64,000 nucleotides of DNA from an uncultured Chloroflexia bacterium (GTDB lineage: Bacteria > Chloroflexota > Limnocylindria > Limnocylindrales > CSP1-4), in assembly GCA_963738475.1 (NCBI GenBank), contig CAVTWU010000017.1, positions 141,064-205,063 on the forward strand, written 5' to 3'. Under the pieces are notes generated by a model. It was given only the letters and a program-made list of their open reading frames with translations, had not been told where the DNA came from and made no database searches. Made by a program: the position numbers and the translations under genes. Positions 35,523 through 56,908 of this stretch are shown in pieces (within the stretch, counting starts at the first letter, position 1; each line of letters opens with the position of its first letter).

Positions 35523-35529
35523 GGTCGCG

Positions 35530-38638: not shown

Positions 38639-38731
38639 GTCACATTCGCCCCGTTTTGCGGCAGTCCGACTCTGGGCGCAGCGTACGCCGTCGCCGACAC
38701 TGCGGTCGAACCGAACCGACAGGAGACCGCG

Positions 38732-40130
38732 ATGACCATCGAGGCTGCCGAGCACCGACTGCGCGAGACCGTCCAGGGCGAGGTCTTCGCGGCCGGCGAC
38801 GCCGGCTACGACGCCGCCCGCGCCGTCTGGAACGCCATGATCGACCGACGCCCGGCGGTCATCGTCCGAGCGGCGGGCGTCGACGACGTCGTCGCGGCCG
38901 TCGGACTGGCGCGCGAGCTCGGCCTGCCGGTCTCGGTCCGCGGCGGCGGGCACAACGTCGCGGGCCACGCCGTGGGCGACGGCAGCGTGATGGTCGACCT
39001 GTCGGGGATGCGCGGCGTCCAGGTGGATCCGGAGCGGCGACGGGCCCTCGTGGACGGCGGGGCGACCTGGGGCGACGTCGATCGCGCCACCCAGGCGCAC
39101 GGCCTCGCGACGCCGGGCGGGCTCATCTCGGACACGGGCGTCGGCGGGCTCACGTTGAGTGGCGGCATCGGCTGGCTCCGAAGCCGCTACGGGCTGGCCA
39201 TCGACAACCTCGTCTCGGCCGAGGTCGTGACCGCGGACGGACGCGTCGTGCGCGCCAGCGCGGACGAGCACCCGGACCTGCTCTGGGCGCTCAAGGGCGG
39301 CGGCGGCAACTTCGGCGTCGTCACGCAGTTCGAGTTCGCGCTCCACCCGGTCGGGCCCGAAGGTCATGTTCTGCGCGCCGCTGTACGACCTCGACGCGGG
39401 CAGCGGTCCGATCCGCTTCTGGCGCGACTTCCTCGCGGACAAGAACGACGACATCGGTTCGATCGTCGAGTTCTCGACCATCCCGGCCGACCCGGCGTAC
39501 CCGGAGGCCGCCTGGGGACGGCGCATCTACACGATCGCCGCGGTCTACGCCGGCGACGCGGACGAGGGCGAGGCGCTCCTCCAGCCGCTGCGCGAGCTCG
39601 GCGAGCCGGTCATCGACTTCTCCGGGCAGATGGACTACGCCGACGTCCAGCAGCTGTTCGACACGCTCATGCCGGCCGGGCAGTTCCGCTCGTACTGGAA
39701 GAGCCGCTACCTGAGCGGCCTGGGCGACGAGGCGATCGACGCGATGCTCGAAGGGAATGCGAGCCCGCCTTCGCCGAACACGCTGTCGTCGATCTGGAAC
39801 TTCGGCGGGCGCCACGGCGCGGGTCGGGGCGGCCGAGACGGCGTTCGGCGATCGGTCGATGCCGTACATGGTCTCGTTCGACTCGGTCTGGAGCGATGCC
39901 GACGACGATGCCGCCAACATCGCCTGGACGCGCGACCTGTGGGATCGCCTCGGAGCGTACGGCCAGCAGGACCGGATCTACCTGAACTTCGCCGGCCACG
40001 GCGAGGACAGCGACGCGCTGGTGCGTGGCGACGTTCGGCGACAACTTCGCCCGGCTCGCCTCGATCAAGGCGACCTACGACCCGGGCAACGTCTTCCGCT
40101 TCAACCAGAACATCACGCCGGCGGGCTGAG
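38732..40130 (+). CDS. FAD-linked oxidoreductase (berberine-bridge-enzyme-like / FAD_binding_4)
   Basis: [96 protein letters not shown], and C-terminus [15 protein letters not shown]. Confidence 0.75.
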
Positions 40131-40263
40131 GCTCGCTCGTGCGGCCGGCGCTGCGACGTCCCGGCGCTCGGGCGCACCGGAATCGGCCAGATAAGCGCCA
40201 GATAAGCGGCCATCGCTATGGTCCAGGTCCACCCCGCCGCGTACCCTCGATGGGTCCACGAAG

Positions 40264-42036
40264 GGGAGTGCCAGTGGTCGTGGGACACGCCGCGTTACGA
40301 CGAACACGTGTCGCGCTGATCGCCGGGGTCCTGGCGATCGGGTGGAGCGCCGGGGCCGGCCCATTCGGGTTGCGCGCGGTGGTGGCAAGTCCCGCGCCCA
40401 CGCGTCGTCATCGTGGTGGGTCCATCGGGCGCCGCCACGGACCGGTATCGCGCGCAGGGTCGCGAGGCGGCCGCCGTCGCCCGCCGGTTCACCAGCGACG
40501 TCACGGAGCTGTACTCCCCGAACGCCACGTGGCCGGCCGTCCGTGCCGCCCTCCAGGGCGCCAGCGTCGTCATCTACATGGGCCACGGCAACGGCTGGCC
40601 GAGCCCGCACCGCGACTCGCTGTTCCCGGCGACGCCAGAACGGGTTCGGGCTCAACCCGAGCGCCGGCGGCAACGACTCGGACCACCAGTACTTCGGCGA
40701 GGCCGCCGTCGGGTCGCAGATCCGCCTGGCCTCGAACGCGGTCGTCCTGCTCCACCACCTGTGCTACGCCAGCGGCCTCTCCGAGCCCGGGCGTCCCCGA
40801 AGGCTCGCTGGACATCGCCCGCCAGCGCGTCGACAACTTCGCGGCCGGGTTCATCCGGGCCGGCGCCTCGGCGGTCATCGCCGACGCGTACGCGAGTCCG
40901 ACGGCGTACCTCGCGGCGATCCTCGGTGGCCGACGGTCCATCGATTCGACCTGGCGCCAGCGCGCCGAACGCCAACGGGCACGCGTTCGCGTTCGATAGC
41001 GTCCGAAGCCCGGGCTTCATCGCCCAGATGGATCCCGAGACCGAGACGTCCGGGTTCACGCGCTCGATCGTCCTGCGCGCCGGCCTGACCCCGGCCGACG
41101 TCCGCGCCGGCGCCCAGGGCACGGGCGGACCCGTCGGTCCCGTGGGCCCCGTGGTGCCCAGTCTCGTGGCCAGCCGGGGTCCGGTTCGGTTCGCCGGCCT
41201 TCGCCACGCGGCCGACCGCGGGCGCCGCCGGACGCCTGACGTTGCCGCTCAAGATCGGCGATGCGGCCGCGCTCCCGGATGGCATCGGGGCCAGCCTCCG
41301 CTGGGAGGCGCTCGAGCTCGTGACGCCGCCCGCGGCCCCGCCGACGCCCGGGTCCTGCCCTGCCCCGGATGCGCCGGTCCCGGGGTTCCCCGGTGAGCAG
41401 GCACCGCCGCCCATCGAGCCACTGCCGCCCCCGGACGGCGCCGACCTGGTCGTCGCCGAGCAGCCTGGCGACGTCGTGGCGCCGGTGGCGACGACCGTAC
41501 GAAGCGGCGCGCTCGTCGTCCCGGTCCAGGCGCCCGTCGCGCCAGGTCGCTACCGGCTGACCGTGACCCTGCACGACGCCGATGGCGTGGCCTTCGATGC
41601 CGCGACCCAGGCGCTGCTGCCGACCCTGCTCGTTCGCGTGACCGCCGATGTCGACGGCGCGATCTTCGTCGCCCCGACCATGACGCTGACCGCCGGCCGT
41701 GCCGTCGACCTCCCGATCCGGGTCACCAACCTCGGCGCCGACGCCTGGGGCACGGAAGCCGTCCTGGACGTGACCGGCGGAACCGCCGGACGGCCGGCCA
41801 CGATGGCCCGGATCGTCGGCTGGTGGCTCCCGTCCGGCGAGGCCATCGCCGCGACCGACCTGCCGCCGGCGCTCGCGTCCGGGCGCGACCACGGACCTGT
41901 CGCTCGCCCTGCTCGTGCCGCGAACGCCGGGCGTCCACACCCTCGTACTGGACCTCGTGACGCCGGACGGCGTGTCGCTGATGGCGGCCGGGATCGGCCC
42001 GACGCTCGTCCGCATCACGGTGGTCGCCCCGCGCTG
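40264..42036 (+). CDS. Secreted caspase-fold (clan CD-like) cysteine peptidase candidate with C-terminal Ig-like repeats; frameshifted
   Basis: A signal-like N-terminus is followed by VVIYMGHGNGW, then about 45 aa later NAVVLLHHLCYASG, a His-Gly ... Cys spacing like caspase, C11 or C25 enzymes. The C-terminal repeats read YRLTVTLHDADGVAFDAATQALLPTLLVRV and HTLVLDLVTPDGVSLMAAGIGPTLVRITVV. Confidence 0.45.
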
Positions 42037-42797
42037 AGGGCACGGGACGAACACCTAGGACCGCGAGCCGTCCTGGCCTCCTTCGCAGCGACGCCAGGTA
42101 GGCCGACGCGCCCTTGTAGTCGGGCCACGTCACGTCGTGCTCGTACGCTGACCGGCGCCTCCGACAGTCGATGGCCTGGACCGAAGCCTTCGATCGCGAT
42201 CGCACGCGGACCAGCGGCCCGCGCCAGGTCCCGGTCGAGCGTGGCGAGATCACATGCCAGGGTCTCGGCAAGCACGAGGTATTGGGCGTCGTACGCCGTG
42301 ATCCGGAAGCGCTCCACGGCACCGATCGCCAGGAGGAGTTGGCCGCGATCGAGATCGCGCGTCTCGATCCGAAACGTCTCCAGCGTGTGGACGGCCTCAA
42401 GCGTCTGTTCACCGGTCTGCCGATGCCGGAGCAACAAGGTGTTGGCGACTTCCCACCAGAATGGTCGCGGAACGACCAGCCGCGCTCCCTCGATCGACCA
42501 GTCCCTGAACCGATCGATGATCGCCGGCGTCTGCTCTTCGAGGCGAAGCCGTGCGATCGCCAACGACGCATCCAGCACGATGAGCGGCGCCCTACGCATC
42601 GTCGTCGTCCTCGTCGCGCAGGTCATCACGATGGTGAGGACGTTCGCGACTTCGAGCCAGAAGTGCGCCGGGACGACGTTCCGTCCGCCTGCACGGACGT
42701 GGTCCTGCAACAGACCCGCCGCGACTGGCCCGTTCGGCTCGCCGAGGGCGATCGCGATCGCGATCGAGGCATCGATGACCATGGGTCGTCGCGCCAT
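42015..42797 (-). CDS. vapC: PIN-domain toxin (VapC-like), copy A, with an internally duplicated N-terminal segment
   Basis: MVIDASIAIAIALGEP...NVVPAHFWLEVANVL is followed by a second LIVLDASLAIARLRLEE...LVVPRPFWWEVANTLLL, then ITAYDAQYLVLAETLACDLATLDRDLARAAG. Confidence 0.55.
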   Translation of the reverse strand: MARRPMVIDASIAIAIALGEPNGPVAAGLLQDHVRAGGRNVVPAHFWLEVANVLTIVMTCATRTTTMRRAPLIVLDASLAIARLRLEEQTPAIIDRFRDWSIEGARLVVPRPFWWEVANTLLLRHRQTGEQTLEAVHTLETFRIETRDLDRGQLLLAIGAVERFRITAYDAQYLVLAETLACDLATLDRDLARAAGPRAIAIEGFGPGHRLSEAPVSVRARRDVARLQGRVGLPGVAAKEARTARGPRCSSRALSAGRPP

Positions 42798-42809
42798 CAG
42801 TCGTCGCTC

Positions 42810-43136
42810 AGGCCAGTCCGGGCGGCTCGCGAGATCCGCTCGTCCCGCTCCTCGTGGTCACCCGGATCCACTCCGTCGATGGTCACCTGTCGCCCGGCTC
42901 GGCGGATACTTCGATCGCCATCTCGACTGCCGAAGTCATCGATTCGATCCAGGGCGGCAAGCCGCCGCGACTTGAAGCGCCTCGCGGTCGGACTCCAGGC
43001 TATCGCCCTCTTCGACCGAGACGAGGTACGCCAGGGGCCGGTGGTCGCGCTCGATGAGGATCCGCTCGCCGGCCGAGGCCGCGTCGAGGATCTCGCCGAG
43101 GCGCTTGCGCATGTCCATCGCCGTCACGGTTCTCAT
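42810..43136 (-). CDS. Phd/YefM-type antitoxin, copy A
   Basis: MRTVTAMDMRKRLGEILDAASAGERILIERDHRPLAYLVSVEEGDSL is paralogous to the antitoxin at 44305-44616. Confidence 0.55.
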
Positions 43137-43183
43137 GGTCGATCATGATAATCGCCTATCACGACCGGTCAAGAGGTACCCTT

Positions 43184-43770
43184 CGCCCATGGTCGAGTCC
43201 AACGCGGTCCCCGGGTTCCTGCCGAGCACGCACGGGCTGCGCTTCGCCAACCGATTCACGCCCGGGCCGACGCTCACGTTCGGGCCGATCGATCCGCGCT
43301 GGGTCGGGCATCGGCGATGCGTCGGCCGGGCTGTGCGGCGGCATGAGCTGGCTCGTGCGCGAGCGGTTCGAGGCCGGCCTCCCCGTCCCGGCGGACACGC
43401 TTCCGCCGGCCCATGGCACGCCCCTGTTCCGTGGCCTCGTCCGCCGCCAGGTGCTGTCGCTCGACTGGCTCCGGACGCCGATCCGGTTCTGGTGGATGGG
43501 CGCCATCGGCCAGGCCAGCGCCGCGGAACGGGTCCACGCCGTCGAGTGGCCGCGGATCCGCGCCGACATCGATGCCGGCCGGCTCGCGATGGTCGGCCTC
43601 GTCCGGCACCAGGGCGCCAGCCCGTGGCGGCTGACCCAGAGCCACCAGGTCCTCGCCTACGCCTACGAGATCGACGAGCGACGGCCGGCCCGTCACGATC
43701 CGCATCTACGACCCGAACCTGCCGGGCCGCGACGACGTGGTCGTCACCGAGGCGCGCTACCTCCGCCTGC
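43184..43770 (+). CDS. Hypothetical protein, possible papain-like Cys/His hydrolase fold, sandwiched between duplicated TA modules
   Basis: MVESNAVPGFLPSTHGLRFANRF...IGDASAGLCGGMSWLVRERFEAG...LTQSHQVLAYAYEID. The Cys lies at a helix N-terminus with a downstream His. Confidence 0.35.
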
Positions 43771-44347
43771 CGTAGCGGTCCGGCCCCGCCGCGGTCTCCG
43801 CCCGGAGCCGCGCAAGATACGCGGAGGCGCGCTTGTAGTTGGGCCACGTCACCTCGTGTTCGTAGGCACCGGCGCGTCGTGCAGCCGCCGACCCTGACCG
43901 AAGATGATCGCCCGCGAGCCCGCCGCCGTGGCCAGCGTCAGGTCCAGCGTCGCGAGCTGGCCGTCGACCGTCTCGGCCAGGGCGAGGTACATCGCGTCGT
44001 ACGGGGTCAGGCCGTGCCGCTCGACGCGATCGATGACCTGGATGAGCATCGGGCGGGACGAGTCCACGGTCTGGATACCGAATGAGTCGAGCCGATGCAC
44101 GGTGGCAAGCATCCGTTCGCCGTTCGTCCCGGGCACGCGGCGGATCCGGTTGATGACCTCCAGCCAGAAGTGGGCCGGGACAAGCAGGGCCCGTCGTCGA
44201 TCGAGCCACTGCATCGAGCGCGCCGGCGATCTCCGGGGCTTCGGGCTCATCCAGGATCCGGGCAAGCGCGACCGACGCGTCGATGACGATCGGTGGGCCG
44301 GCCGTCACTTGTCGTCGTCCCGATGGTCGCGGTCGTACCGGACCCAC
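43757..44347 (-). CDS. vapC: PIN-domain toxin (VapC-like), copy B
   Basis: PPIVIDASVALARILDEPEAP, ALLVPAHFWLEVINRI and GLTPYDAMYLALAETVDGQLATLDLTLATAAGSRAI. The C-terminal region shares a YEHEVTWPNYKRASAYLARLR block with copy A. Confidence 0.55.
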   Translation of the reverse strand: MGPVRPRPSGRRQVTAGPPIVIDASVALARILDEPEAPEIAGALDAVARSTTGPACPGPLLAGGHQPDPPRARDERRTDACHRASARLIRYPDRGLVPPDAHPGHRSRRAARPDPVRRDVPRPGRDGRRPARDAGPDAGHGGGLAGDHLRSGSAAARRAGAYEHEVTWPNYKRASAYLARLRAETAAGPDRYGRRR

Positions 44348-44616
44348 TCGGCGGCGCCCATCTCACCCGCGTTGCCGCCCCGTTCGCGATACCACTCCTT
44401 CGGCAAACCTGGTGAGTTCCTCGAGTCGCCGGCGCGACGACGGGCGATCTCCTCTTCCCGGTCCTTGCCACTCGTCACGCGAACCCCGTCCTCGTATGAC
44501 ACGACGAAGGCCAGGGGCTTGTGGTCGCGCTCGATCAGGATCGATTCGCCCGCCGAGGCGGCATCCAGGATCTCGCCGAGCTTCTGTCGCAGTTCGGTCG
44601 CCGTGATCGTCCTCAT
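44305..44616 (-). CDS. Phd/YefM-type antitoxin, copy B
   Basis: MRTITATELRQKLGEILDAASAGESILIERDHKPLAFVVSYEDGVRV. The ORF is intact at 103 aa and overlaps the vapC start. Confidence 0.65.
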   Translation of the reverse strand: MRTITATELRQKLGEILDAASAGESILIERDHKPLAFVVSYEDGVRVTSGKDREEEIARRRAGDSRNSPGLPKEWYRERGGNAGEMGAAEWVRYDRDHRDDDK

Positions 44617-44727
44617 GGTCGACCATCATAGTCAGCCAGCATGGTTGGTCAAGGCGGACGCATCAGCATTCGCGTCATGATCTAGACATCAGCCAGCATC
44701 GCTCGATGCCGACGATACTTCCTCGCT

Positions 44728-45168
44728 ATGAGACGGATAGCTGATACCAGCTGACCGAACAGCTCGCCTCCGAGGTCGGCCAGGCCGCCGAGATGCTCGG
44801 CGTCACGGTCGAGACCCTCCGCCGCTGGGAGACCGCCGGGATCCTGCGCATGGAGCGATCCGACGGCGGCCAGCGACTCGTCTCGATGGCGGAGGTCTCG
44901 CGGCTCCTCGACGAGCGCCGCCGCACGACCACGGACCGTCCGATCGTCGCGTCGTCCGCGCGCAATCGGTTCGTCGGGATCGTCACCCGGGTCGAGCGCG
45001 ACGGGGTCGCCGCGGTCGTCGAGGTCATCGCCGGTCCGCATCGACTCGTCAGCCTGATGACCGCCGAGGCCGTGCTGGACCTGGACCTGAAGGTCGGCGA
45101 CGAGGCGGTCTGCGTCATCAAGGCGACGAACGTCATGGTCGAGATCCCGTCGACCAAGGAGTCGCGCA
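44728..45168 (+). CDS. MerR-type HTH regulator with a molybdate-binding MOP/TOBE domain (ModE-like)
   Basis: The HTH reads EMLGVTVETLRRWETAGIL. The MOP domain reads SARNRFVGIVTRVERDGVAAVVEVIAGPHRLVSLMTAEAVLDLDLKVGDEAVCVIKATNVMVE. Confidence 0.55.
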
Positions 45169-46020
45169 GGATGATGCGCCGTCGTCGATCCTGGTCGTCG
45201 ACGGTCGTCGTCGCGTGCCTGCCTGCTGGCCGGTTGCACGCAGCGGCGTCGGCGCCGCCGCCCGGCCTCGACTCGCGCCGACCGCGGCACCGCCTCCCCC
45301 ACCCCGACGCCCGTCGAGCTCACGATCTTCGCCGCCGCGTCGCTCAAGGGCGCCCTCGAAGCCGCGCAGGACGCCTACGAGACCGCCAACCCGGGCACGA
45401 CCCTGACGATCTCGACCGACTCGTCCGCCGCGCTCAAGACCCAGATCGAGCAGGGCGCCCCGGCCGACCTCTTCCTGTCCGCCGACACGAAGAACCCGCA
45501 GGCGCTCGTCGACGCCGGGCTGACCGACGGAGCCGCCGTCGACTTCGCCGGCAACAAGCTCGTCGTCATCGTCCCGACCGACGACCCGGCGGGCATCACG
45601 ACGCCAGCCGACCTGGCCACCCCCGGCGTGAAGATCATCGCGGCCGGCGACGAGGTGCCGATCACCAAGTACGCGAACCAGCTCGTCGACAACCTGGCCA
45701 AGGAGCCGGGCTACCCGGCCGACTTCGTCGCGGCCTACCAGGCGAACATCGTGTCGAAGGAAGACAACGTCAAGGCCGTCGTCGCCAAGCTGGAGCTGGG
45801 CGAGGGCGACGCCGCGATCGTGTATGTCACCGATGCCAAGATCTCGACGAAGGTGGCCTCGGTGGAGGTTCCCGACGCGGCCAACGTCGTCGCGACGTAC
45901 GCCGGTGTCGTCGTCAAGGCGACCGAGAGCCCCGACGCCGCCGCCGCCTTCCTGACCTGGCTGGCCGGCCCCGACGGACAGGCGATCCTCAGCGGGTTCG
46001 GGTTCCTGCCCCCGTCGTGA
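45169..46020 (+). CDS. modA: Molybdate ABC transporter substrate-binding lipoprotein
   Basis: A lipobox LLAGC, then ELTIFAAASLKGALEAAQDAYE, LFLSAD, KLVVIVP and AIVYVTDAK. Confidence 0.75.
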
Positions 46021-46890
46021 CCGTCGCCACCGCGCGCGCCGGGAGCCGCCGCCGCTCCAGCTGGGGTGACCGCTCGCTCACGACGGTCGCGATCCTGTTC
46101 GCCCTGTTCCTGGGGCTGCCCGTGCTCACGCTGGTGGGACGGGCGGTCCTGGACGGCTCGCTCGCGATCGCGGCCGGTTCGCCGGAGGTGCTCGACGCGC
46201 TCTGGCTGAGCCTCGTCACGACATCGATCAGCCTGGTCATCACCGTGGTGCTCGGGCCTGCCGCTGGCGATCGTCCTGGCCCGCCGCGAGTTCCGCGGCA
46301 AGGGCTGGCTCGAGACCGTGGTGGACCTGCCGATCGTGCTGCCGCCGTCGGTCGCCGGGCTCGCGCTGCTGCTCGTCTTCGGGCGGCGCGGGCTGCTCAA
46401 CGCGCCGTTCGAGTTCCTGGGCATCTCCGTCGCGTTCACGACGATCGCCGTGATCCTCGCCCAGGTCTTCGTGTCGGCGCCGTTCTTCATCCGGTCCGCG
46501 CGGACCGGGATCGCCGGCGTGGATCGCGACATCGAGGATGCGGCCCGGGTCGACGGCGCGTCCGAGCGGGCACTCTTTCGGATCGGTCACGGTGCCGCTC
46601 GCGGGTGCCGCGCTGGCGGCCGGCCTGGTCATGACCTGGGCGCGGTCACTCGGCGAATTCGGCGCCACGATCATGTTCGCGGGCAACGTCGAGGGCAAGA
46701 CCCAGACGCTGCCGCTCGTCGTCTACAGCGAGTTCCAGGGCGGCAACCTGGACGCGTCGGTGGCCGCCGCGGCGATCCTGGTCCTCGCCGCGTTCGGCGT
46801 CCTCATCGCGGTCCGTGTGTTCCACTGGGGCCGGCGTGCTGGATGTTCGAGGCATCAGCTAGGGCCAGGGTCGAGTGGCTATCCTGGCTG
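46017..46890 (+). CDS. modB: Molybdate ABC transporter permease
   Basis: DLPIVLPPSVAGLALLLVFGRRGLL and EAARVDGAS...ALAAGLVMTWARSLGEFGATIMFAGNV carry the EAA loop. There is no in-frame stop before the next gene. Confidence 0.7.
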
Positions 46891-46894
46891 CATG

Positions 46895-49800
46895 GCTGAG
46901 CCCCTTGCCCCCGGCCTCCACGAAGCGTTGGTTACCGAGGCGATCGCCCAATCTATAGCCGCGCGGGAGCTCGAGGGTTGGTGGGCAGATGTCGCCAACG
47001 CGGACCCGGCCCTCCTACCTGACCTTCTGGCGCGCTATGTGCATGACGTCGCCCGTCGCTCGATTGCGAGCATGCGTGGCGACGATGACGCCAAACTCCT
47101 CGCCCAGGTAGCCGTTGTCAACACCCTGCTCCGGGTACTCCGAGAGTCGGCGCCGGACGGTGTCGTCATAGAACTCGACAACGTCGCGGACGGATCTAGA
47201 GTCCTCCGGGAGGTTCGGCCGCCGAGTCTTGCGCCGATCGTCCGAAGGCCGACGCGCCGACCAATGATCTCGCTTCGAGAGAGCGCCCTCCTAGTCAACG
47301 GTCACCGGGACTACCAAATCGGATCCGAAGTTGTTCGGGAACTCGAGAGCGCCGACCGGGTCGATCTGCTGAGCGCCTTCGTCCGATTTGCAGGTCTCCG
47401 GCTGGTTCGAGAACAACTAGCGGCCTTTGTAGGACGTGGCGGCCAGCTTCGAGTCATCACCAGCGTCTACACGGGCTCAACTGAGAAGAAGGCACTTGAC
47501 GCGATCGTCTCGATCGGAGGCGAGGTCAAGGTCTCCTACGAGACCTCCCAGACGCGGTTGCACGCCAAGGCCTGGCTGTTCAAGAGAGACTCAGGCTTTC
47601 ATACCGCATACATCGGATCGTCCAATCTCACGCACTCGGCCCTGGTCGAGGGTCTCGAGTGGAACGTGCGTGTTAGCGAAGTCGACAACCCAGCAATCGT
47701 TGAACGTGTCGGTGCGGCATTTGAGCAATATTGGAATGAGCCTGAGTTCGTCTCGTATGACCCCGATGTCGATGGCGAGCGACTCGCCAACGCCCTTTCG
47801 AGTCAGAAGGGTGGCGACAAGGACCAAGGGCTCGAATCCATACTTGCGCTCAACTTGGAGTTTGAGCCCAAGTCGCATCAATCCCAGATGCTCGAGGCGC
47901 TCGAGGCAGAACGGCGCCACGGCTATCGACGCAATCTCGTAGTTGCGGCCACGGGCACCGGTAAGACCTGGGTTTCGGCCTTTGACTTTCGGAGGCTTCA
48001 GGCCTCCGGTCTGAGCAGACTTCTCTTCGTCGCTCATCGAGACGAGATCTTGCGACAGAGCCAGCAGGTCTTCCAACTAGTGCTGCGGGACTCCGCCTTC
48101 GGGGAGCGGTTCATCGCCGATGAGCGCCCCGTCGTCGGCGAGCATGTCTTCGCTTCGATCCAGTCGTTGGCGCGTCACATCGACGAGATGGATCCACGAG
48201 CGTGGGACGTGGTGATCGTCGACGAGTTTCACCACGCTGAGGCGGCAACTTACAAGAGACTGCTCGAGCACCTGCAGCCGAGGGTCCTGGTTGGCCTCAC
48301 GGCGACGCCAGAGCGCGCCGATGGAAAGTCGATCCTCCACTACTTCGATGACCGGATCGCGTGTGACCTGCGCCTCTGGCAGGCCCTCGACGAAGGATTG
48401 CTGGCACCGTTCCACTACTTCGGCATCAACGACGGTACCGACCTTCGAGATGTCGGGTTCACTCGGGGGCAGTACGCAATCGGCGAGCTTGAGGGTGTCT
48501 ACACGACAGACTCGAATCGAGTTGCCCGCATCATCGATGCGGTTACCAAGGAAGTCCCAGACCCGCGAACGATGCGGGCACTTGGATTCTGCGTCGGGGT
48601 GAGCCATGCGACGTTCATGGCGCAGGAGTTCTCACGGGCTGGACTCCCCTCGATCGTTCTGAGCGGGACATCGACGTCGGAGGACCGTGCGTCCGGAATC
48701 CGCAAACTGCGTCGAGGCGAGATCCGGGCGATCTTCACGGTGGACCTCTTCAACGAAGGCGTCGACATACCTGAGGTCGACACCGTTCTGATGTTGCGAC
48801 CGACGGAGAGCGCGACTGTCTTTCTGCAGCAGCTTGGCCGGGGCCTCCGTCACGCACCCGGAAAGTCGGTCCTGACAGTGCTCGACTTCATTGGACAGGC
48901 TCATCAAAGCTATCGCTTCGACGTTCGATTTCGAGCCTTGGTCGGCGGCACGAGGAAGCAGGTGGCATCGGCGATCGAGGAGGGGTTCCCGCTCACGCCT
49001 CCAGGATGCGCAATTCGCCTTGATCGCATTGCTGCCTCCTACGTGCTTGAGAACATCCGGGCCAGCCTTCACGCGGGCCGGCGCCTCCTCGTGGACGATC
49101 TCAAGTCCCTCCCGCCAACCACGACCCTGGGTGAGTACATCGACCGGTCCGGCCATGACCTGGACGAGATCTACGCCAGTCCGAGCGCGGGGCACTCCTT
49201 CACGGACATTCGACGCCGGGCTGGCTTTCTTGAGTCGGTGCGCGAGGACGTCAGCTTGGAGCGTGCGATCGGCAGAACGCTGCATGTGGACGATGACGAG
49301 CGACTAGGCACCTGGATCGAATGGCTGGCACGGGACTCAAGCCCGCCCACCTTTCCGCTCGAAAGTCGAGACGGCCGGCTCCAGCTGATGCTCCACGCCG
49401 TTATCGGCCAACGCGGTCGCGCCGTCAGCCAACGAGCCGAGGTGCTCGCCGAGATGTGGGCGACGCCGATTCGCCGGGAGTATCTGGAGCTGTTCAGGCT
49501 GCTCCGAGATCGCTCACGGGCCAATTCGGTCGCGATCGATCCCGAAGGACTCATCCCCATTCACAGTCATGCCACCTACGGCCTGTACGAGATCGTCGCG
49601 GCCTACGGATTGATAAACAAGGACCAGCTACGTGAGACGCGAGAGGGTGTCATTTGGGCCAAGACGAGCCTCACTGACTTGCTCTTTGTGACGCTAGATA
49701 AGTCCGATGCCGAGTACTCCGTGACAACGCGCTATCAGGACTACCCGATCTCGCCGACCCTCTTCCACTGGGAGTCCCAGAACGCCACGGCTGCGTCCTC

Positions 49801-50026
49801 CGAAACCGGACGACGTTATGTCGAGCACCGTGACCGTGGCTCGAGCGTCGTGCTGTTTGTGCGGACTCGAAAGAGCGACGATCGGGGTCAAACCGCTCCG
49901 TATGTGTGCCTGGGTGGTGCCAAGTACGTCCAACACGAGTCGGAGCGGCCCATGCGCATCACCTGGTCCCTCGATCGCGGCATGCCGCCCGAGTTGTTCC
50001 AGTCTTCCAAGGTTGCCGCTGGCTAG
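46895..50026 (+). CDS. PLD-family (HKD) nuclease, SF2 DEAD/DEAH helicase and DUF3427 fusion protein; intact, lower GC; candidate stand-alone defence gene
   Basis: The HKD motif reads RLHAKAWLFKRDSGFHTAYIGSSNLTHSAL. Helicase motif I reads VVAATGTGKTW, motif II VIVDEFHHAE, motif III LTATPER and motif VI QQLGRGLRH. The C-terminal region is DUF3427-like, ending ISPTLFHWESQNATAASSETGRRYVEH...VCLGGAKYV. The 1043-aa reading has no frameshift and GC is about 60% against about 72% in the flanks. Confidence 0.8.
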   Translation, partial: AEPLAPGLHEALVTEAIAQSIAARELEGWWADVANADPALLPDLLARYVHDVARRSIASMRGDDDAKLLAQVAVVNTLLRVLRESAPDGVVIELDNVADGSRVLREVRPPSLAPIVRRPTRRPMISLRESALLVNGHRDYQIGSEVVRELESADRVDLLSAFVRFAGLRLVREQLAAFVGRGGQLRVITSVYTGSTEKKALDAIVSIGGEVKVSYETSQTRLHAKAWLFKRDSGFHTAYIGSSNLTHSALVEGLEWNVRVSEVDNPAIVERVGAAFEQYWNEPEFVSYDPDVDGERLANALSSQKGGDKDQGLESILALNLEFEPKSHQSQMLEALEAERRHGYRRNLVVAATGTGKTWVSAFDFRRLQASGLSRLLFVAHRDEILRQSQQVFQLVLRDSAFGERFIADERPVVGEHVFASIQSLARHIDEMDPRAWDVVIVDEFHHAEAATYKRLLEHLQPRVLVGLTATPERADGKSILHYFDDRIACDLRLWQALDEGLLAPFHYFGINDGTDLRDVGFTRGQYAIGELEGVYTTDSNRVARIIDAVTKEVPDPRTMRALGFCVGVSHATFMAQEFSRAGLPSIVLSGTSTSEDRASGIRKLRRGEIRAIFTVDLFNEGVDIPEVDTVLMLRPTESATVFLQQLGRGLRHAPGKSVLTVLDFIGQAHQSYRFDVRFRALVGGTRKQVASAIEEGFPLTPPGCAIRLDRIAASYVLENIRASLHAGRRLLVDDLKSLPPTTTLGEYIDRSGHDLDEIYASPSAGHSFTDIRRRAGFLESVREDVSLERAIGRTLHVDDDERLGTWIEWLARDSSPPTFPLESRDGRLQLMLHAVIGQRGRAVSQRAEVLAEMWATPIRREYLELFRLLRDRSRANSVAIDPEGLIPIHSHATYGLYEIVAAYGLINKDQLRETREGVIWAKTSLTDLLFVTLDKSDAEYSVTTRYQDYPISPTLFHWESQNATAASSETGRRYVEHRDRGSSVVLFVRTRKSDDRGQTAPYVCLGGAKYVQHESERPMRITWSLDRGMPPELFQSSKVAAG

Positions 50027-50036
50027 TCGCGCGACG

Positions 50037-50297
50037 TCACCAGCCCAGGCCGAGCTCCGGGTAGCGCTCGGCCAGCTCCTCGAGCGTGAACGACCCGACG
50101 CCGAGACGGGCTTCGGTGCCGTCCAGGTCCGTGATGACGGCGTCGGCCAGCAGTTCGGTGTCGCCCGGGTGGAGCTCGATCCGTTCGAGCACGAGACGGA
50201 CGATCTTGGGCAGGCCGGCGAGGACTTCCTCGCGCAGCTCGGCGCCGTGGATGCGAATGACCAGGTTCAGTGCCCAGAGGCGGCTGATCGATCCCAT
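50037..50297 (-). CDS. Hypothetical 86-aa protein convergent on the helicase gene
   Basis: The ORF reads MGSISRLWALNLVIRIHGAELREEVLAGLPKIVRLVLERIELHPGD...; no family was recognised. Confidence 0.3.
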   Translation of the reverse strand: MGSISRLWALNLVIRIHGAELREEVLAGLPKIVRLVLERIELHPGDTELLADAVITDLDGTEARLGVGSFTLEELAERYPELGLGW

Positions 50298-50350
50298 GGC
50301 CTGACGCTACCCGGATCCGCGGCGATCGTCGATCGTGCAGATCGCACAGA

Positions 50351-50611
50351 TCAGGCCCAGCGAACGTGTTCGGCGTGGTCGCGACCGAAGGCTCGGCGAC
50401 ATGGGCACCAGCCGGACGACGTGAACTTGCCGCAGCCGGTCGTGTCGCGACCGTGGAACTCGACCAGGTGGTCGCAGCGGCGACAGATGTCGTTCGGATG
50501 CGGGTCGACCGAGGCGTGGCAGCGGCGACAGAACGTCCCATCGATCGGCAGTCCATCGGGGTCGTCCGTTGGAACGACAGAACGCTCGCATCGCCACGCG
50601 CCCCGGATCAT
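50351..50611 (-). CDS. Small Cys-rich zinc-ribbon-like protein
   Basis: FCRRCHASVDPHPNDICRRCDHLVEFHGRDTTGCGKFTSSGWCPC has paired CxxC motifs. GC at codon third positions is 18 of 20 in this frame against 8 of 20 and 14 of 20 in the other two. Confidence 0.45.
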   Translation of the reverse strand: MIRGAWRCERSVVPTDDPDGLPIDGTFCRRCHASVDPHPNDICRRCDHLVEFHGRDTTGCGKFTSSGWCPCRRAFGRDHAEHVRWA

Positions 50612-50643
50612 GGTCCAAGCCTGCCCGGATCGACCGGGATCGT

Positions 50644-51912
50644 CTAGAACGGGGTCGAGTTCCAGGGCTTGACCGCGGTCACGAACAGGGCGTCGGCCGC
50701 GGCGATCGCGCCGTCACGCAACTCCGTGATCCGGCCCGCGCGAGCGAGTTCCGCGAACGTGAACGCACCCAGGTAGAGCGTGCTGAGCGCGGAGATGTCG
50801 AGCGCGAGGTCGGCCGCCGCGTCAGCCGCGCCAGCCGCGACCGCCTCCACCGAGGCGACCGCTCCCCCACCCGGAACGGTCAACCGCCACGTGCCGGCGT
50901 TCCACGGGCAGAACTCGTCGGTCAGCTCGAACGTCACGGACCCGGCGCCCGCGTAGGACCGACCTTCCAGCGCCGGCGCGACGTCCAGGATCCGGAGCCA
51001 CATCTCGTCGTTGACCTGGAGGCCCAGGCGGCGTGGTTCGGTCAGCTGGAGCATCAGGGGATGCGGCACGGGCTGGCGGTGGCCCTTGACGCTGGCGACC
51101 AGGTCCACCCGGAACAGCCACTGCCACATGGCCTGTTCGTCCTCGGGGTCGATGCCGTTGAGCTCGAGGACGCGCATCGCGTTCTTCGGGCCGCGAGGCT
51201 CCCAGTCCGCCTTGATCCGGTAGATGGCGTAGGCCCTGGGCTTGCCGTCCACTTCCAGCACGGCCATCGACTTGGGCCCGCTGCCGGCTCGCATGTACTC
51301 GGCGTCATAGGCCATGCCCCAGCGCCAGGTGGTCTCGCAGCGGTCCAGGGCGCCGGGCGTCCGCCGCCGGACGGCGTCGTAGACCGCGGGGAACAAGGCG
51401 GTCGCTTCCTCCGTATCGACGAAGCGGAACTGCCCGGACGTCTGCACCGGCCGCAGGAACGTGGCCCGAAGCGGCTCGATCTCGAACTCGCTGCGCAGGC
51501 TCGCGATGCCATACCCGAAGCGCTGGTAGATCGCCGCCTCGGAGGCGCCCAGGATGGCGACCGGCTCGCCACGTTCCCGCGCCTGGGCGACCAGCCAGGT
51601 CATCATCCGTCGCAGGACCCCACGCCGGGTATGGGTCGGCAGGACCCCGACGATGGTGACGCCCGCGGCCCCGATCTCGCCGCCCGGCACGGTCAGCCGG
51701 AACGTGTAGGCGCCGGCGACTCCCACCTGGAGCTCTCCGTCGAAGGCGCCGACGACCCGGTCGCGCTCGAGATGCCGCTCCTCGAGCTGCAGCTCGTCGT
51801 CCGACATCGACTCGCCGAAGGCGATCGGCAGCGGCTTGAGGAACTCGAGGACCTGCCCCTCCCCGGGCGAGCGCAACGTGATGGGGTCCTGGGTCACGAC
51901 ATCGTCTGGCAC
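50644..51912 (-). CDS. eis: Eis-like GNAT acetyltransferase with a C-terminal SCP2-like domain; intact
   Basis: The 422-aa ORF has the GNAT core VTIVGVLPTHTRRGVLRRMMTWLVAQARERGEPVAILGASEAAIYQRFGY and the Eis-type tail FELTDEFCPWNAGTWRL. Confidence 0.7.
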   Translation of the reverse strand: MPDDVVTQDPITLRSPGEGQVLEFLKPLPIAFGESMSDDELQLEERHLERDRVVGAFDGELQVGVAGAYTFRLTVPGGEIGAAGVTIVGVLPTHTRRGVLRRMMTWLVAQARERGEPVAILGASEAAIYQRFGYGIASLRSEFEIEPLRATFLRPVQTSGQFRFVDTEEATALFPAVYDAVRRRTPGALDRCETTWRWGMAYDAEYMRAGSGPKSMAVLEVDGKPRAYAIYRIKADWEPRGPKNAMRVLELNGIDPEDEQAMWQWLFRVDLVASVKGHRQPVPHPLMLQLTEPRRLGLQVNDEMWLRILDVAPALEGRSYAGAGSVTFELTDEFCPWNAGTWRLTVPGGGAVASVEAVAAGAADAAADLALDISALSTLYLGAFTFAELARAGRITELRDGAIAAADALFVTAVKPWNSTPF

Positions 51913-51950
51913 GGCGCCATCCTGCCACGGTTGCGTCTCACCCGGTCACG

Positions 51951-52265
51951 ATGTATACATACATCGTCATGGAACGCACGCAGATCTACCTCACCACCGC
52001 GCAGACGACCGAGCTGGACAAGCGCGCCCAGCAACAGGGCACGACGCGCTCACATCTCATCCGCGAGGCCGTCGAGACCTACCTGGGCCCCACCTGGGAC
52101 GCCGAGGCGTTCAAGGCGGCGCTGGACCGGTTTGCCGGCGTGTGGGCCGACCGGGACGACATCGACGAGATCCACGAAGGGATGCGCGAAGCCGGGCGAC
52201 GCAAGATGAAGCAGCTCTACCCCGACTATGGCTCGGAAGCCGATGACGCTGACGATCGTCGATAG
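51951..52265 (+). CDS. Ribbon-helix-helix (CopG/VapB-like) antitoxin
   Basis: MERTQIYLTTAQTTELDKRAQQQGTTRSHLIREAVETYL is the RHH motif. Confidence 0.6.
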   Translation: MYTYIVMERTQIYLTTAQTTELDKRAQQQGTTRSHLIREAVETYLGPTWDAEAFKAALDRFAGVWADRDDIDEIHEGMREAGRRKMKQLYPDYGSEADDADDRR

Positions 52266-52627
52266 CACCGTCCTCATCGACGCCAGTCCGAGAGCGGACC
52301 GACCGCCCTCGGGTTCCTGGCGCAGGCGGCCGAGGCCGGGCCGGTGTGCGAGCTCGGTGGTCGTGCGGACCGAGCTGTGGTCGGCGCCAAGCCGGACGAG
52401 GTGGCGCGGCATCGCGGTCTTGTTCGACCGGATCGAGTGGCACGACGTCACGCATGTCGATCGCCGACCTCGCAGCGACAGCTCGGTGCGCCATATCGGC
52501 GCAGTCATCGGATCGATGCCGTAGACCTGATCGTCGCGGCGACGGCTATCGAGCTCGGAGGCGTCTGTCGCGACACTGAACGTCCGTGACTTCCCGATGT
52601 TCCCGGGACTGCAGCCGCCGTACTGAC
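52228..52627 (+). CDS. vapC: PIN-domain toxin (VapC-like); frameshifted
   Basis: The N-terminus reads MTLTIVDSTVLIDASP. It continues in another frame as RIDAVDLIVAATAIELGGV. Its start overlaps the antitoxin stop. Confidence 0.5.
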
Positions 52628-52629
52628 GG

Positions 52630-55428
52630 CTAGACCGGCGGCAGCTCCTGGGCGTCGGTCTGGGCCGCGGCGAACAGGTCGCCCACCTCCGCGACGCGCT
52701 CCGCGATCGTGCGGATCGTCCAGCGGTCCGGGCGCAGGTCCGGGTCGTCCAGCTCGTCCCAGGTGATCGGGGCGGACACCGGGGCGCCACGGGACGGGCG
52801 CACGGCATACGGCGCGACGAGGGTCTTGATGCTCGCGTTCTGGGTGTAGTCGAGGCGGGCCTTGCCCTTGCGGGCCTCCTTGGCCCACTCCCAGCTGACG
52901 AGGTCCGGGACGGTCGAGCCAACGGCCTTCGACACCCGCTCGACCCAGCCGCTCGTCTCCTCGAACGAGTACTTCGGCACGATCGGGATCCAGACCTGGA
53001 TGCCGCGCTTGCCGGTCGTCTTGGGATAGCCGCGGACGCCGAGGTGGCCCAGCGCGGTCCGATAGAGCCGCGCGAGGACGAGCGTCTCGTCCCAGGTCGT
53101 CTTCTCGCCGGGATCGATGTCGATGAGCGCGAACGTCGGGCTCCACGGCTCGGGCAGCTTCCCGGTCCAGGCGTGGATCTCGAAGCTGGCCTGGTTGCCG
53201 AGCCAGCACAGGGCCGCCACGCCGTCGGCGATGAGGTGCTCGTTGGCGCTCCGGTCCGTCCGGCCGTCGACGCCGGTCTCGCGCCAGCGGGTCAGCCACT
53301 TCGGGGCGGTCTCCGGGATGTCCTTCTGCCAGAACCCGGGCGCCTCGGCGCCGTTGGGGAAGCGCTGGAGGTTGAGCGGCCGGTCCGCGAGGTGCGGCAG
53401 CATGACCGGCGCGATCCGGGCGAAGTAGCGGATGAGGTCGCGCTTGGTGATCGGCGTGTCGCCGGCGTCGTCCGTCGCGGGGCGGAACAGCGGCTTGTCC
53501 AGGTTGGTGAGCTTCAGTTCCTGCGCCACCGACCTGCCAGACGCCTTCCTTGCCGAGGGCCTCGAGAGCGGCGAGTTCGTCCTCGGTCGCGCCAGGAAAC
53601 GCGGGCGCGGCGGCGCGGCCTCGACTTCGGCGCGATCCCGGCCTTGGGCTTGGCGCTCGAGTCGCCTTCGGCTCGTTCGGGGTCGGCTTCGAGGTCGTCA
53701 TCGGTGTCTCATCTTCGGCCTTCTTGACGGCCGATGCCGTCTCGACCGCCACCTCGCGCGTGACCTCGCGCGGATCGCGTCCCGACTCGATGCCCTTGAA
53801 GGCGGCCTGGCGGACCATCCCGTCGCGCGACCAGCCGGCCGATTCGACCCGGATGACGAGCTCCGGACGGACCCACACGACGGACTTCAGCTCGCCGCCC
53901 CACCGCCCGCGATGGTCGCGCGACGGCGCCGGATCGAACGGCGGGTCATCGGGGCCGAGCTCCAGCTCGTCCAGGCGCTCGCGCAGCGCTCGGCGCGTCT
54001 TCGCATCGAAGCCGGACCCGACCTTGCCGGCGAACTTGAGCGCGTCGCCCTCGTAGACGCCGACGACGACGGCCCCGAGATCGCGGGCGTTCCCCTCCCC
54101 CGGCGTCCAGCCACCGACGACGAACTCCTGCTCCGGCCGGATCTTCAGCTTCAGCCAGGCGGACGACCGCTTGCCGGGTTCGTAGCGCGAGTTCCGGAGC
54201 TTGGCGACGACGCCCTCGAGGCCCTGGCTGGCGGCCGCCGCGTGGAAGGCGAGCCCCTCACCCTCGATGTGGGCGGCGTAGCGGACGCGCGGGTGGTCCT
54301 TGAGCACGCTCTTGAGCAGGCGCTTGCGGTCCTCGAGCGGGACGTCGAGGAGCGACCGACCGTCGAGGTAGAGCAGGTCGAACGCCTGGTAGACGAGGCC
54401 CGGCGGCGCCCTTCTGGCCGAGCCGCTCCTGGAGGAGGCCGAAGTCGGGGCGGCCGGCGTCGTCGAGCGCGACGACCTCGCCATCGACGATGGCCTCGTC
54501 GGCCACGATCCAGGTCGGCGGGGAGAGGAGCCTCGGGAAGTAGGTCTCGGCGTCGTGCATGTTGCGGGTCAGGATCTTGACGGTCTTGTCCTTGACGACG
54601 GCCTGGACGCGATAGCCGTCCCACTTGATCTCGAACAGCCAGCGCGGGTCGCTGAACGGCTTGGACGCGAGGGTCGCGAGCATCGGGTCGATGCGGGCGG
54701 GCATCGGGGCGACCTTGGCCTTGCTCAGGTCGATCTCGGCGGCGGCGGCCGGGGCCTCGCTCAGCCAGATCGCGTCGCGGTCCGCCTTGACGTCGTCGTT
54801 CGTGCGGCCGGTCTTGACGCTCTGCGGGTGATCCTCGGCGTCCCAGCCCTTGACCGACGCCTCGTCGCGCTTGTGGATGAGCAGCCAGGCCTCGCCCTCG
54901 TCGTCCTCGAAGGCGCGCGCGGCGGGGTCGTCGCCCTTGCGCTTGCGGCCGCTGGTCCGGACGATCGTGAACCGGCCGTGGAGCTTCTCGCCATCGAGCT
55001 TGAACTTGAGTTCGCCGGCCGGGATCGAGGTGATGGCGTCCGTGGTGGGCGCCTCCGACTCCCACGTGCCCCAGTCCCACACGATCACGTCGCCGGCGCC
55101 GTACTGCTTGGACGGGATGACGCCCTCGAAGTCGAAGTACTCGATGGGGTGGTCCTCGACGTGCATCGCCATGCGCCGCTGGTCCGGGTCCAGCGTGGGG
55201 CCGCGCGGCACGGCCCAGCTCACGAGGACGCCACCGACCTCCAGCCGGAAGTCGTAGTGGAGGCGGCTGGCGCGGTGGCGCTGGACGACGTAGCGGCCAC
55301 TCGTCGCGGGGACGTGGGGCGCGTCAGGCGGGTGCGCGCCCGCATCCTTGGCGCCCGCGGGCTCGGGCGTCTGCGCGAAGTCGCGTTTGCGGTGGTAGTC
55401 GTGGAGCGGCACGGTCGCAGTGTGCCGT
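52630..55428 (-). CDS. ligD: Multidomain NHEJ ligase LigD (3-prime-phosphoesterase, ATP-dependent ligase and primase-polymerase domains); frameshifted
   Basis: The PE domain reads LHDYHRKRDFAQTPEP...RYVVQRHRASRLHYDFRLE...WAVPRGP. The ligase domain reads PMLATLASKPFSDPRWLFEIKWDGYRVQ. The polymerase domain reads QELKLTNLDKPLFRP...DRPLNLQRFPNG...WIPIVP with a stop at 52630. Confidence 0.8.
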
Positions 55429-55533
55429 ATCGCCGCTGGCGCTGGCGCTGGCGCTCGCTCGGCCGGACCGCGAGCCTGACCCTCCGGACACGAGGTCCCG
55501 GAAACGACCCTGTCGCGATGGTTTCGATCAAGC

Positions 55534-55701
55534 GGAACCATCTCGGGAGCCGCAGCGGAGCGCGTCAACTGGCACGATTCCGCTTGCCTGGAACCATCTC
55601 GAGAGCCGCAGCGGAGGCCAACTAGTTCCGCTTGCCTGGAACCATCTCGAGAGCCGCAGCGGAGGCCAACTAGTTCCGCTTGTCTGGAACCATCTCGAGA
55701 G
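55534..55701. repeat. Tandem direct repeat: one 56-bp unit, two near-identical 48-bp units and a 16-bp partial unit, in the ku-ligD intergenic region
   Basis: Seen directly: GGAACCATCTCGAGAGCCGCAGCGGAGGCCAACTAGTTCCGCTTGCCT starts at 55590 and repeats at 55638 with 1 mismatch. The 56-bp variant sits at 55534 and a partial unit at 55686. Each unit carries GGAAC...GTTCC and CCGCAGCGG palindromes. A (GCGCTG)4 run lies just upstream at about 55437. Confidence 0.7.
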
Positions 55702-55766
55702 TGACTTCCAGGGAGAGGTGTTCCCCCGAGTCGCGGGCGGGCGCGACGTCGAGGAGCGACCGCCGG

Positions 55767-56789
55767 TCAGGCGGACTTGCGGCGCCGGGCGGGCTTGGCG
55801 GGCGCCTCGTCCTCGGCCTCGGCGTCGGCTTCGGCTCGGCCGTCGCCTTGGCCGCCGTCGCGCTCTTGGCGGGCGCCTTGGCCTTCGCCGGCGACGACTT
55901 CGCGGCCGACGACTTCGCCGCCTTCGCCGCCGTGGCCGCCTCCGCGTCCCGTGCCTCGCGGACCTCCGCGACGGACACCGGCTCGCCGCCGGCCGCGGCG
56001 GTCCGCGCGGTCGTCGCGGACTTGACCGACGCCTCCAGCGCGGCCATCAGGTCGATCAGCTTGCCGGACTCCTCGGGCGCATCGACCGAGACCGTCTCCT
56101 TGCCCTCGACCTTGGCCTGGATGACGGCCTCCAGCGCGGCCCGGTACTCGTCCTTGTACGAGCCGGCATCGAAGTCGCCGGTCATCGCCTCGACGAGCTG
56201 CCGGGCCATCAGCCAGCTCGGCCGGCTTGAACGTGAACTCCTCATCGCCGAGGTCCAGCTCGGCCGTCGAGCGGATCTCGTCCGGCCAGTGGAGCGTGGT
56301 CATGAGCATCGTGTCGCCGAAGGGGTCGATCGCGGCCAGCGCCTCGCGGTCCTTGATGACGACCTTGCAGATGGCCGTCAGGCCCTCGTCCTCGAGCACG
56401 GAGCGCAGCAGGTAGAACGCCTTGCGGCCGACCTTGTCGGGCTCCAGGTAGTAGGCGCTCTTGACGAAGCGGACGTTGGCGTCGTCGCGCTCGGCCTTGG
56501 TGAACTGCTCGATCTCGATCGATCGGACGGTCTTGAGCGGGACGTTGTCGAGGTCCTCGTCCGTGATGACCACGTACTCGCCGGGCGAGTATTCGTAGCC
56601 CTTGACCGTCTCCGACCGCGAGATGACCTCGTCCTCGACCGGGCAGACGATCTTCATCTGGATCCGGGACAGGTCGTCCTTGTGGAGCATGTTGAAGGCG
56701 ATGCCCTTGGATTCGGTCGCCAGGTAGAGCTTCACCGGGATGGTGACGAGCCCGAACTGGATGGCCCCCTTCCACATCGCTCGCGCCAC
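55767..56789 (-). CDS. ku: Ku DNA-end-binding protein with a Lys/Ala-rich C-terminal tail
   Basis: MARAMWKGAIQFGLVTIPVKLYLATESKGIAFNMLHKDD..., with the tail KAAKSSAAKSSPAKAKAPAKSATAAKA. There is one frameshift. Confidence 0.85.
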   Translation of the reverse strand: MARAMWKGAIQFGLVTIPVKLYLATESKGIAFNMLHKDDLSRIQMKIVCPVEDEVISRSETVKGYEYSPGEYVVITDEDLDNVPLKTVRSIEIEQFTKAERDDANVRFVKSAYYLEPDKVGRKAFYLLRSVLEDEGLTAICKVVIKDREALAAIDPFGDTMLMTTLHWPDEIRSTAELDLGDEEFTFKPAELADGPAARRGDDRRLRCRLVQGRVPGRAGGRHPGQGRGQGDGLGRCARGVRQADRPDGRAGGVGQVRDDRADRRGRRRAGVRRGGPRGTGRGGGHGGEGGEVVGREVVAGEGQGARQERDGGQGDGRAEADAEAEDEAPAKPARRRKSA

Positions 56790-56908
56790 GACTGACCTCC
56801 GCCTCTAGAAGCCGAGCGGACCCAGGTTCACCGGCCAGGGTCGTCGGGACGACACCTTAGCGCACGCGCGCAAGCGGGGCCTTGCAGCGCGGCCGGCGGT
56901 CGCGAGCC

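Follow-up and report, generated by a model that had tools for sequence, protein, structure and literature searches.

A predicted SauUSI-family restriction endonuclease beside modAB, rather than a modB fusion, in an uncultured Chloroflexota genome

Within a 64-kb window of a contig from an uncultured Chloroflexota bacterium (CAVTWU010000017.1; the window is the whole stretch of DNA that was analysed, and positions are counted along it), a gene at 46892..50026 on the forward strand probably encodes, with a probability that we place at roughly 0.8, a single-chain SauUSI-family restriction endonuclease that depends on ATP and on DNA modification (type IV). The protein matches the PADLOC model PDLC03659, 'type IV methyl-directed restriction enzyme' (mREase_IV), from residue 122 to 1038 over profile positions 16–939 of 945 (E 7.9e-259), and the sister model PDLC03658 is also matched (2.7e-86). 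The best PDB match by sequence is SauUSI itself (7CLG, E 2.7e-86 over residues 132–677), which is also the best fold match, at ~22% identity in the structural alignment. Pfam, PADLOC and 7CLG agree on one chain with a PLD nuclease towards the N-terminus, an SF2 ATPase in the middle and a DUF3427 domain at the C-terminus. A first-pass annotation of this DNA had described the same architecture, which Pfam confirms (PLDc_2, ResIII, Helicase_C and DUF3427), and every helicase and nuclease motif that it quoted is present; its general picture of a nuclease-helicase gene of defence type with atypical composition also holds. It had added that proteins of this kind have no described mechanism; however, the combination of PLD, SF2 and DUF3427 is that of SauUSI, for which biochemistry, a crystal structure and single-molecule data were published between 2011 and 2025. 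The predicted family is a known and mechanistically understood kind, of which this member is itself uncharacterised.

The limits of the gene and its parts are well marked. A scan for open reading frames (ORFs) gives a stop-free frame at 46538..50026 (+), within which the gene starts at ATG 46892 and ends at TAG 50024–50026, a product of 1044 amino acids (aa) with its methionine; the 1043 aa given earlier describe the same, real ORF with Met omitted. The start codon is fixed at ATG 46892 because homologues of 1040–1050 aa span 100% of the protein and have the same N-terminus (consensus M...L.PGLYE.L.T). Residue numbers here count Met1, and raw alignment outputs are one lower, as the protein queries began at Ala2. 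In forward-strand order, the gene comprises an N-terminal extension of ~125 aa (46892..47266), in which the structure model, read with the alignments, predicts three helices (residues 15–26, 41–58 and 64–85); a PLD-family (HKD) nuclease domain (47405..47734; PLDc_2 at residues 171–280) with H224, K226, N245, E256 and Lys231; an SF2 helicase-like ATPase motor defined by Pfam and motifs (47861..48853; ResIII at 323–474, E 2.5e-33, and Helicase_C at 558–653, E 2.3e-12); a helical coupler between motor and recognition domain (48929..49531), with approximate boundaries taken from the model and from analogy with SauUSI; and a DUF3427 target-recognition domain (49613..50002; residues 907–1036, E 1.2e-18), whose candidate pocket residues are W922, F932, V933, D950 and W960. 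Coupler helices are predicted at ~711–873, with a predicted local distance difference test score (pLDDT) of 75–95 from residue 730; the SauUSI coupler comprises residues 618–805 (PMC7913695).

Residues known to be needed for catalysis in SauUSI are conserved. H119, K121, N139 and E150 of SauUSI, each essential in vitro and dead as alanine mutants (PMC3141236), align with H224, K226, N245 and E256, and all four are invariant in 54 full-length homologues. Conservation extends to the SF2 motor, in which motifs I, II, III and VI are all intact (ATGTGKT, DEFH, TATP and QQLGRGLR). The pocket that holds 5-methylcytosine (5mC) in SauUSI is formed by Y831, F841, I842, D858 and W868 (PMC7913695); in an alignment that is weak over SauUSI residues 840–920, D858 and W868 correspond to D950 and W960, an Asp and a Trp that are invariant in the family, and F841, I842 and Y831 correspond to F932, V933 and W922. 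The ratio of nonsynonymous to synonymous divergence (dN/dS) is 0.04–0.07 among copies that are 79–88% identical, so the restriction gene is under strong purifying selection.

SauUSI combines a PLD nuclease, an SF2 ATPase and DUF3427, requires ATP, cuts DNA carrying S5mCNGS or 5-hydroxymethylcytosine (5hmC) and works without a companion methylase (PMC3141236). In the crystal structure, the PLD domains hold two SauUSI chains together as a dimer, and each chain also has a helical coupler and an SRA-fold DUF3427 domain that flips out 5-methylcytosine (PMC7913695); single-molecule work describes 5mC-triggered loop translocation and DNA shredding (bioRxiv 10.1101/2025.10.16.682607). The present protein is like SauUSI in the order of its domains along one chain (PLD, SF2 ATPase, coupler and DUF3427, the last being SRA-like in SauUSI), in keeping all four residues of the active site together with the motifs of the motor and the Asp and Trp aligned with the pocket, and in having no adjacent methyltransferase: C5-methyltransferase motifs were absent from every frame of the 64-kb window in a crude motif scan, and no methyltransferase was called beside the gene in nine related Limnocylindria-type loci. 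Enzymatic activity, the modification recognised and dimerisation are predicted here by homology with SauUSI. On that analogy, two subunits would dimerise via their PLD nuclease domains, and the C-terminal DUF3427 (SRA-like) domain would flip a 5-methyl- or 5-hydroxymethyl-cytosine into its pocket. Base flipping would turn on the SF2 motor for translocation along double-stranded DNA, and the PLD dimer would cleave both strands, such that repeated cycles would shred methylated non-self DNA. A partner methyltransferase would be unneeded because, as proposed, the host's own DNA is without the modification.

Three further groups of enzymes delimit the comparison. ScoA3I (Sco2863) of Streptomyces coelicolor is a SauUSI homologue of 945 aa that restricted Dcm-methylated plasmid ~1000-fold in S. 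lividans (PMC6765204). Like the present protein, it is a SauUSI homologue of a high-GC bacterium with an altered acidic residue in its PLD motif, and it differs in that ScoA3I, as expressed, was without most of the N-terminal extension. The restriction protein is probably closest to this high-GC, ScoA3I-type branch, since the length of PDLC03659 (945) equals that of ScoA3I and the description of the model fits, a placement drawn from these correspondences rather than from an alignment with Sco2863. CglI and NgoAVII are likewise ATP-dependent restriction enzymes that pair a PLD nuclease with an SF2 translocase (PMC7913695), but they do so as separate subunits (R2H2) with a B3-type recognition domain and a partner methyltransferase, and they cut unmodified sites, whereas the present protein is a single chain with DUF3427. 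The McaZI/YenY4I group shares the modified-cytosine-sensing DUF3427 domain with it, and its enzymes restrict 5hmC phage (PMC6765204). In that group, however, DUF3427 is fused to a PD-(D/E)XK nuclease; the enzymes are without the helicase motor, have another nuclease fold and often lie beside methyltransferases.

Several observations weigh against assigning the protein to active SauUSI-type enzymes. The acidic position of the HxK(x)4[D/E] motif (E126 in SauUSI) is Lys231 here, and ScoA3I, which is altered at a conserved acidic PLD-motif residue that would be the same position as Lys231, showed no activity either in vitro or in E. coli (PMC6765204). By sequence, the C-terminal domain matches that of SauUSI weakly (i-Evalue 0.037), the structure model has pLDDT <50 at residues 494–527 and 635–725, and the N-terminal region of ~125 aa has no counterpart in SauUSI or in the PADLOC profile, whose alignments begin at query residues 132 and 122, respectively. 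Identity to SauUSI is ~22% (structural alignment), and the protein differs from it further in that extra N-terminal helical region, in having Lys for Glu at the E126 position and in its high-GC Chloroflexota host. Long retention at one locus together with strong purifying selection is also less typical of defence genes than patchy turnover. The N-terminal extension has no Pfam match and one weak, likely chance PADLOC match (BrxD, E 0.006); an exhaustive search with the N-terminal 125 aa gave 71 cluster representatives, nearly all short fragments, and found no second architecture.

Some of these points would fit a SauUSI relative that is nuclease-impaired or repurposed, for example as a methyl-cytosine-sensing translocase or as a repair factor acting with Ku/LigD, Lhr and UDG. 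This alternative draws on the Lys at the acidic HKD position, taken with the in vitro inactivity of ScoA3I, on the location of the gene within 0.3–6 kb of LigD in a repair-rich neighbourhood in 10/10 assemblies of the lineage, and on the strong purifying selection. We consider it unlikely. Residues at the E126 position in the 54 homologues are E (28), H (11), R (5), D (3), Q (2), N (2), K (1), G (1) and S (1), and because ~43% of full-length members (23/54) are non-acidic there, the acidic HKD position is not treated as defining of the family. The four residues essential in SauUSI are invariant here, and ScoA3I did restrict methylated DNA in Streptomyces (PMC6765204). Copies with ~60% identity in Myxococcus and in another Chloroflexi lineage have no LigD or Ku nearby, so the adjacency may be inherited synteny of one lineage, and in the related locus L094 the same position holds a different defence candidate (below).

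The gene is not fused to modB. Related loci were collected by ModA (L001–L080) or by the restriction gene (L081–L085 and L089–L091); a metagenome scan with Eis gave four short loci only. The ModA relatives place the organism in a Chloroflexota lineage whose metagenome-assembled genomes are labelled 'Candidatus Limnocylindrales'. In the window, modB (46017..46862, +) carries three one-base insertions (~46253, 46584 and 46833/46834) and has its own stop codon (TAG, 46860–46862). At the end of modB the relatives read TGGGGCCGCGTG and the window reads TGGGGCCGGCGTG, that is, with one extra G at 46833/46834, and the frame of the relatives continues there as ...WGRVLD... to a stop. ModB is intact in both L001 and L006, where its C-terminus is ...RVFRWGRVLDVRAASTGD and ...RWGRVLDTRGVG, respectively, each followed by a stop; with the extra G removed, window modB ends in ...FHWGRVLDVRGIS before the TAG at 46860–46862, 29 nt before the ATG of the restriction gene. 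The modB frame that had been reported to run into the gene is indeed stop-free as deposited (46538..50026), but this continuous frame is an artefact of one inserted base. A public protein record identical to the gene is annotated as 1144 aa, which places the read-through in the deposited assembly itself.

Nor has modC been displaced. The first-pass annotation was correct that modC is not present, as no ABC ATPase was found after modB or elsewhere in the 64-kb window, but an ORF with both Walker-A and LSGGQ motifs occurs within 3 kb after modB in 0/65 related loci (those of the 80 ModA-relative loci with enough sequence after modB). As a control, the same pattern detects ABC ATPases elsewhere in 9/80 loci. 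No modC remnant was found in 50026–50650, where only two conserved small ORFs without an assigned family occur. We also rejected 46836–46862 (GTG CTG GAT GTT CGA GGC ATC AGC TAG) as a truncated modC start (MLDVRGIS), as the relatives show a normal ModB C-terminus there. The molybdate cluster of the lineage (window 44793–46862; L001–L080) consists of a regulator with MerR-type helix-turn-helix and TOBE domains (modE-like), modA and modB. The absence of modC is ancestral and nothing was displaced; the ATPase partner of ModAB must be encoded elsewhere.

The position of the gene is conserved relative to DNA end-joining genes rather than to modAB. Nine related assemblies from various projects carry the restriction gene in the same interval, at 59–82% identity to the window gene (79–82% for L081–L084, 63% for L085 and L089, and ~60% for L090 and L091), and it lies 0.3–6 kb from LigD in all ten assemblies of the lineage that carry it. 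The interval is bounded upstream by a gene for a DsbH-like thioredoxin and, downstream and convergent, by a block of Eis-like acetyltransferase, (ribbon-helix-helix (RHH)/PIN), LigD and Ku genes; the window has matching Lhr, DsbH-like, LigD and Ku genes, and L090 has the same order (Lhr ... UDG ... DsbH ... restriction gene ... LigD-Ku). In L082, L083, L084 and L091, a conserved ORF of 165–203 aa immediately precedes the gene and modAB is not beside it, which contradicts the earlier claim of an insertion at the end of modB, and no restriction gene lies near modA in the 80 ModA-relative loci (0/80). Copies of this ORF (L082 9359–9937, L083 3223–3834, L084 9364–9942 and L091 7463–7960) are 62–78% identical among those four loci. 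Its window homologue lies 3 kb from the restriction gene at ~42976–43814 (+) and is frameshifted; a Phd/PIN toxin-antitoxin pair and the modE-like/modA/modB block (43849–46862) stand between the two. No Pfam or PADLOC family was assigned to the ORF, although its GLCGGM...H...YDPN pattern may represent a signature of a Cys/His hydrolase.

Occupancy of the position varies among relatives. L001 matches the left side of the window to the modB end and then diverges, and L006 is an empty site in which modB is followed by ~210 nt and then by eis-LigD-Ku. In L094, the slot (3303–5288) is filled by a gene for a 661-aa Schlafen-group-3/DUF2075-type helicase (PADLOC candidate PDC-S41, E 2.3e-117), located between a conserved 86-aa ORF and a Phd antitoxin gene, with a G+C content at third codon positions (GC3) of 0.70 versus 0.74–0.84 in its neighbours. 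A search beside the gene for flanking direct or inverted repeats, att-like sites, an integrase, a tRNA and mobility genes gave nothing above chance. Within this plastic interval, the position thus acts like a slot for one defence gene with variable content, and its nearness to modB is secondary. Of the 'single-gene defence island' proposed at first, the variable slot survives (the gene in 10 assemblies, an alternative in L094, an empty site in L006); a recent insertion into modB, or into the mod operon as a whole, is not supported.

A lower GC confined to the gene, a frame open from modB, the missing modC and an L006 site where eis follows modB after only ~210 nt are the points in favour of a recently acquired island of one gene that entered at the modB 3' end, with deletion of modC and fusion to the modB frame. 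This history is highly improbable: modB has its own stop and the read-through comes from one extra G, 0/65 relatives have an ATPase gene after modB, other carrier genomes keep the gene in an unchanged position with respect to eis/LigD/Ku although modAB does not adjoin it, synonymous sites between copies are saturated with low GC3 common to all copies, and the expected repeats, integrase and tRNA were not found at the flanks.

Composition nevertheless sets the gene apart. Its GC content is 0.62 versus 0.725 in the rest of the window, and sliding GC falls from ~0.72 to 0.58–0.65 exactly across it, as had been noticed from the outset. GC at first, second and third codon positions is 0.69/0.45/0.72, and the neighbouring genes have a GC3 of 0.83–0.96, which places most of the drop at third positions; codons ending in A or T make up 28% of the gene versus 8% in host genes. 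All ten lineage copies have a GC3 of 0.68–0.77 beside neighbours at 0.83–0.96, and a 61%-identical Myxococcus copy has a host-like GC3 of 0.87. Related genomes carry the gene at a conserved locus, largely the outcome that the first-pass annotation had itself named as refuting its proposal, and the compositional anomaly persists. Because synonymous sites between copies are saturated (proportion of synonymous differences, pS, 0.58–0.75), it is unlikely that the gene was acquired recently from a donor of low GC. Restriction-gene identities group the genomes as Ku does, and as Eis does apart from L083; restriction-gene and LigD identities show no rank correlation (rho -0.02 over 10 pairs). Long-standing vertical descent in which an unusual codon usage was preserved would account for this pattern, and so would recurrent within-lineage exchange at the slot; the present comparisons cannot separate the two.

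The gene is also exceptional in being free of one-base insertions, an earlier observation that is borne out by both flanks. Over 11 kb compared with L001 (87% nucleotide identity), the window shows 34 insertions and 9 deletions of a single base; compared with L006, the counts are 51 and 11, respectively. Insertions occur at ~1 per 350 nt in 34757–46846 and 50644–59931 relative to short-read relatives (for example, at 38371, 39359 and 40400) and split most flanking genes into frame fragments. None occurs in the 3.1-kb restriction gene, where 7–11 are expected from the left-flank rate against L001 (P(0) ~2e-4 to 8e-4). Homopolymer-linked error was rejected as the reason for the indel-free gene: only 8 of the 33 inserted bases repeat an adjacent base, and runs are about equally dense. 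Insertions are not rarer at lower local GC within the flanks, but half of the gene has GC values lower than any that the flanks cover. In the long-read assemblies L085 and L091, neighbouring genes are split and the restriction gene is intact, a pattern that points toward a composition-dependent effect; a composition-dependent sequencing or polishing effect is the most economical guess. That the low-GC, error-free 3.1 kb came from another organism by misassembly or polishing with foreign reads, as a composition unlike both flanks and its standing as the only long stretch examined without one-base insertions might suggest, is barely credible, since the junctions with the 86-aa ORF, eis, LigD and the upstream element recur in nine other assemblies from different projects and assemblers, and DNA homology to L082 and L083 crosses the right junction (to 50352 and 50514, respectively). 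Apparent fusions and pseudogenes of this assembly are not to be trusted.

Elements that adjoin the gene are themselves conserved. The sequence CTATCCTGGC (window 46878–46894) is conserved 7–8 nt upstream of the start codon in 6/7 related loci; it contains a -10-like hexamer, TATCCT (46880..46885, +), 6 nt before the ATG. No Shine-Dalgarno sequence was found before the ATG, and a generic sigma-70 and terminator scan was uninformative. This conservation suggests that the restriction gene has its own putative, possibly leaderless, promoter. On the other side, a conserved 86-aa ORF of native composition and no known family (50037..50297, -) is convergent with the gene across a 10-nt gap and forms the right edge of the low-GC segment; its homologues adjoin the gene in L082 (78%) and L083 (69%) and the alternative cargo in L094 (85%). 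A second conserved 86-aa ORF (50351–50611, -) lies between the gene and eis. Of the two, one is acidic and helical-looking, and the other is Cys-rich with a weak double-zinc-ribbon match; the Cys-rich ORF lies upstream of the mod cluster in L006, which indicates local rearrangement. Neither Pfam nor PADLOC gave meaningful matches for a 192-aa upstream ORF, the 86-aa ORFs or small ORFs in L081 and L085.

The wider neighbourhood contains toxin-antitoxin modules and a non-homologous end-joining operon, as had been reported. Three toxin-antitoxin modules lie within 11 kb of the window: a PIN toxin gene (42015–42797, -) in a second lower-GC stretch (42000–43250, ~0.66), a Phd/YefM-PIN pair (44305–44625 and 43849–44304, -) and an RHH/PIN pair between eis and LigD (~51945–52600). 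An Lhr-type helicase is encoded at 21677–24565 (-), LigD at 52630–55766 (-), where frame breaks separate the primase-polymerase, phosphoesterase and ligase parts from one another, and Ku at 55767–56804 (-).

These analyses are mostly a correction: what appeared to be an unexplained nuclease-helicase fusion that had disabled a molybdate transporter is a recognisable type IV restriction enzyme beside an intact-looking modAB. A modest interest remains in a conserved defence slot beside end-joining genes that accepts alternative cargo, and in a long-lived low GC3. A wider proposition, which we regard as doubtful, is that a SauUSI-type enzyme has occupied the slot beside Ku/LigD across all of the divergence sampled (59–88% identity between copies) with non-host codon usage kept throughout (GC3 ~0.7 versus ~0.9, synonymous sites saturated). 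If true, it would mean selection on codon usage, for example to throttle a nuclease that is toxic, ongoing exchange of the gene among members of the lineage at this specific site, or functional coupling of methyl-directed DNA breakage to end joining. On the family assignment itself, these uncultured Chloroflexota of soil and fresh water would be expected to restrict DNA that carries methylated cytosine.

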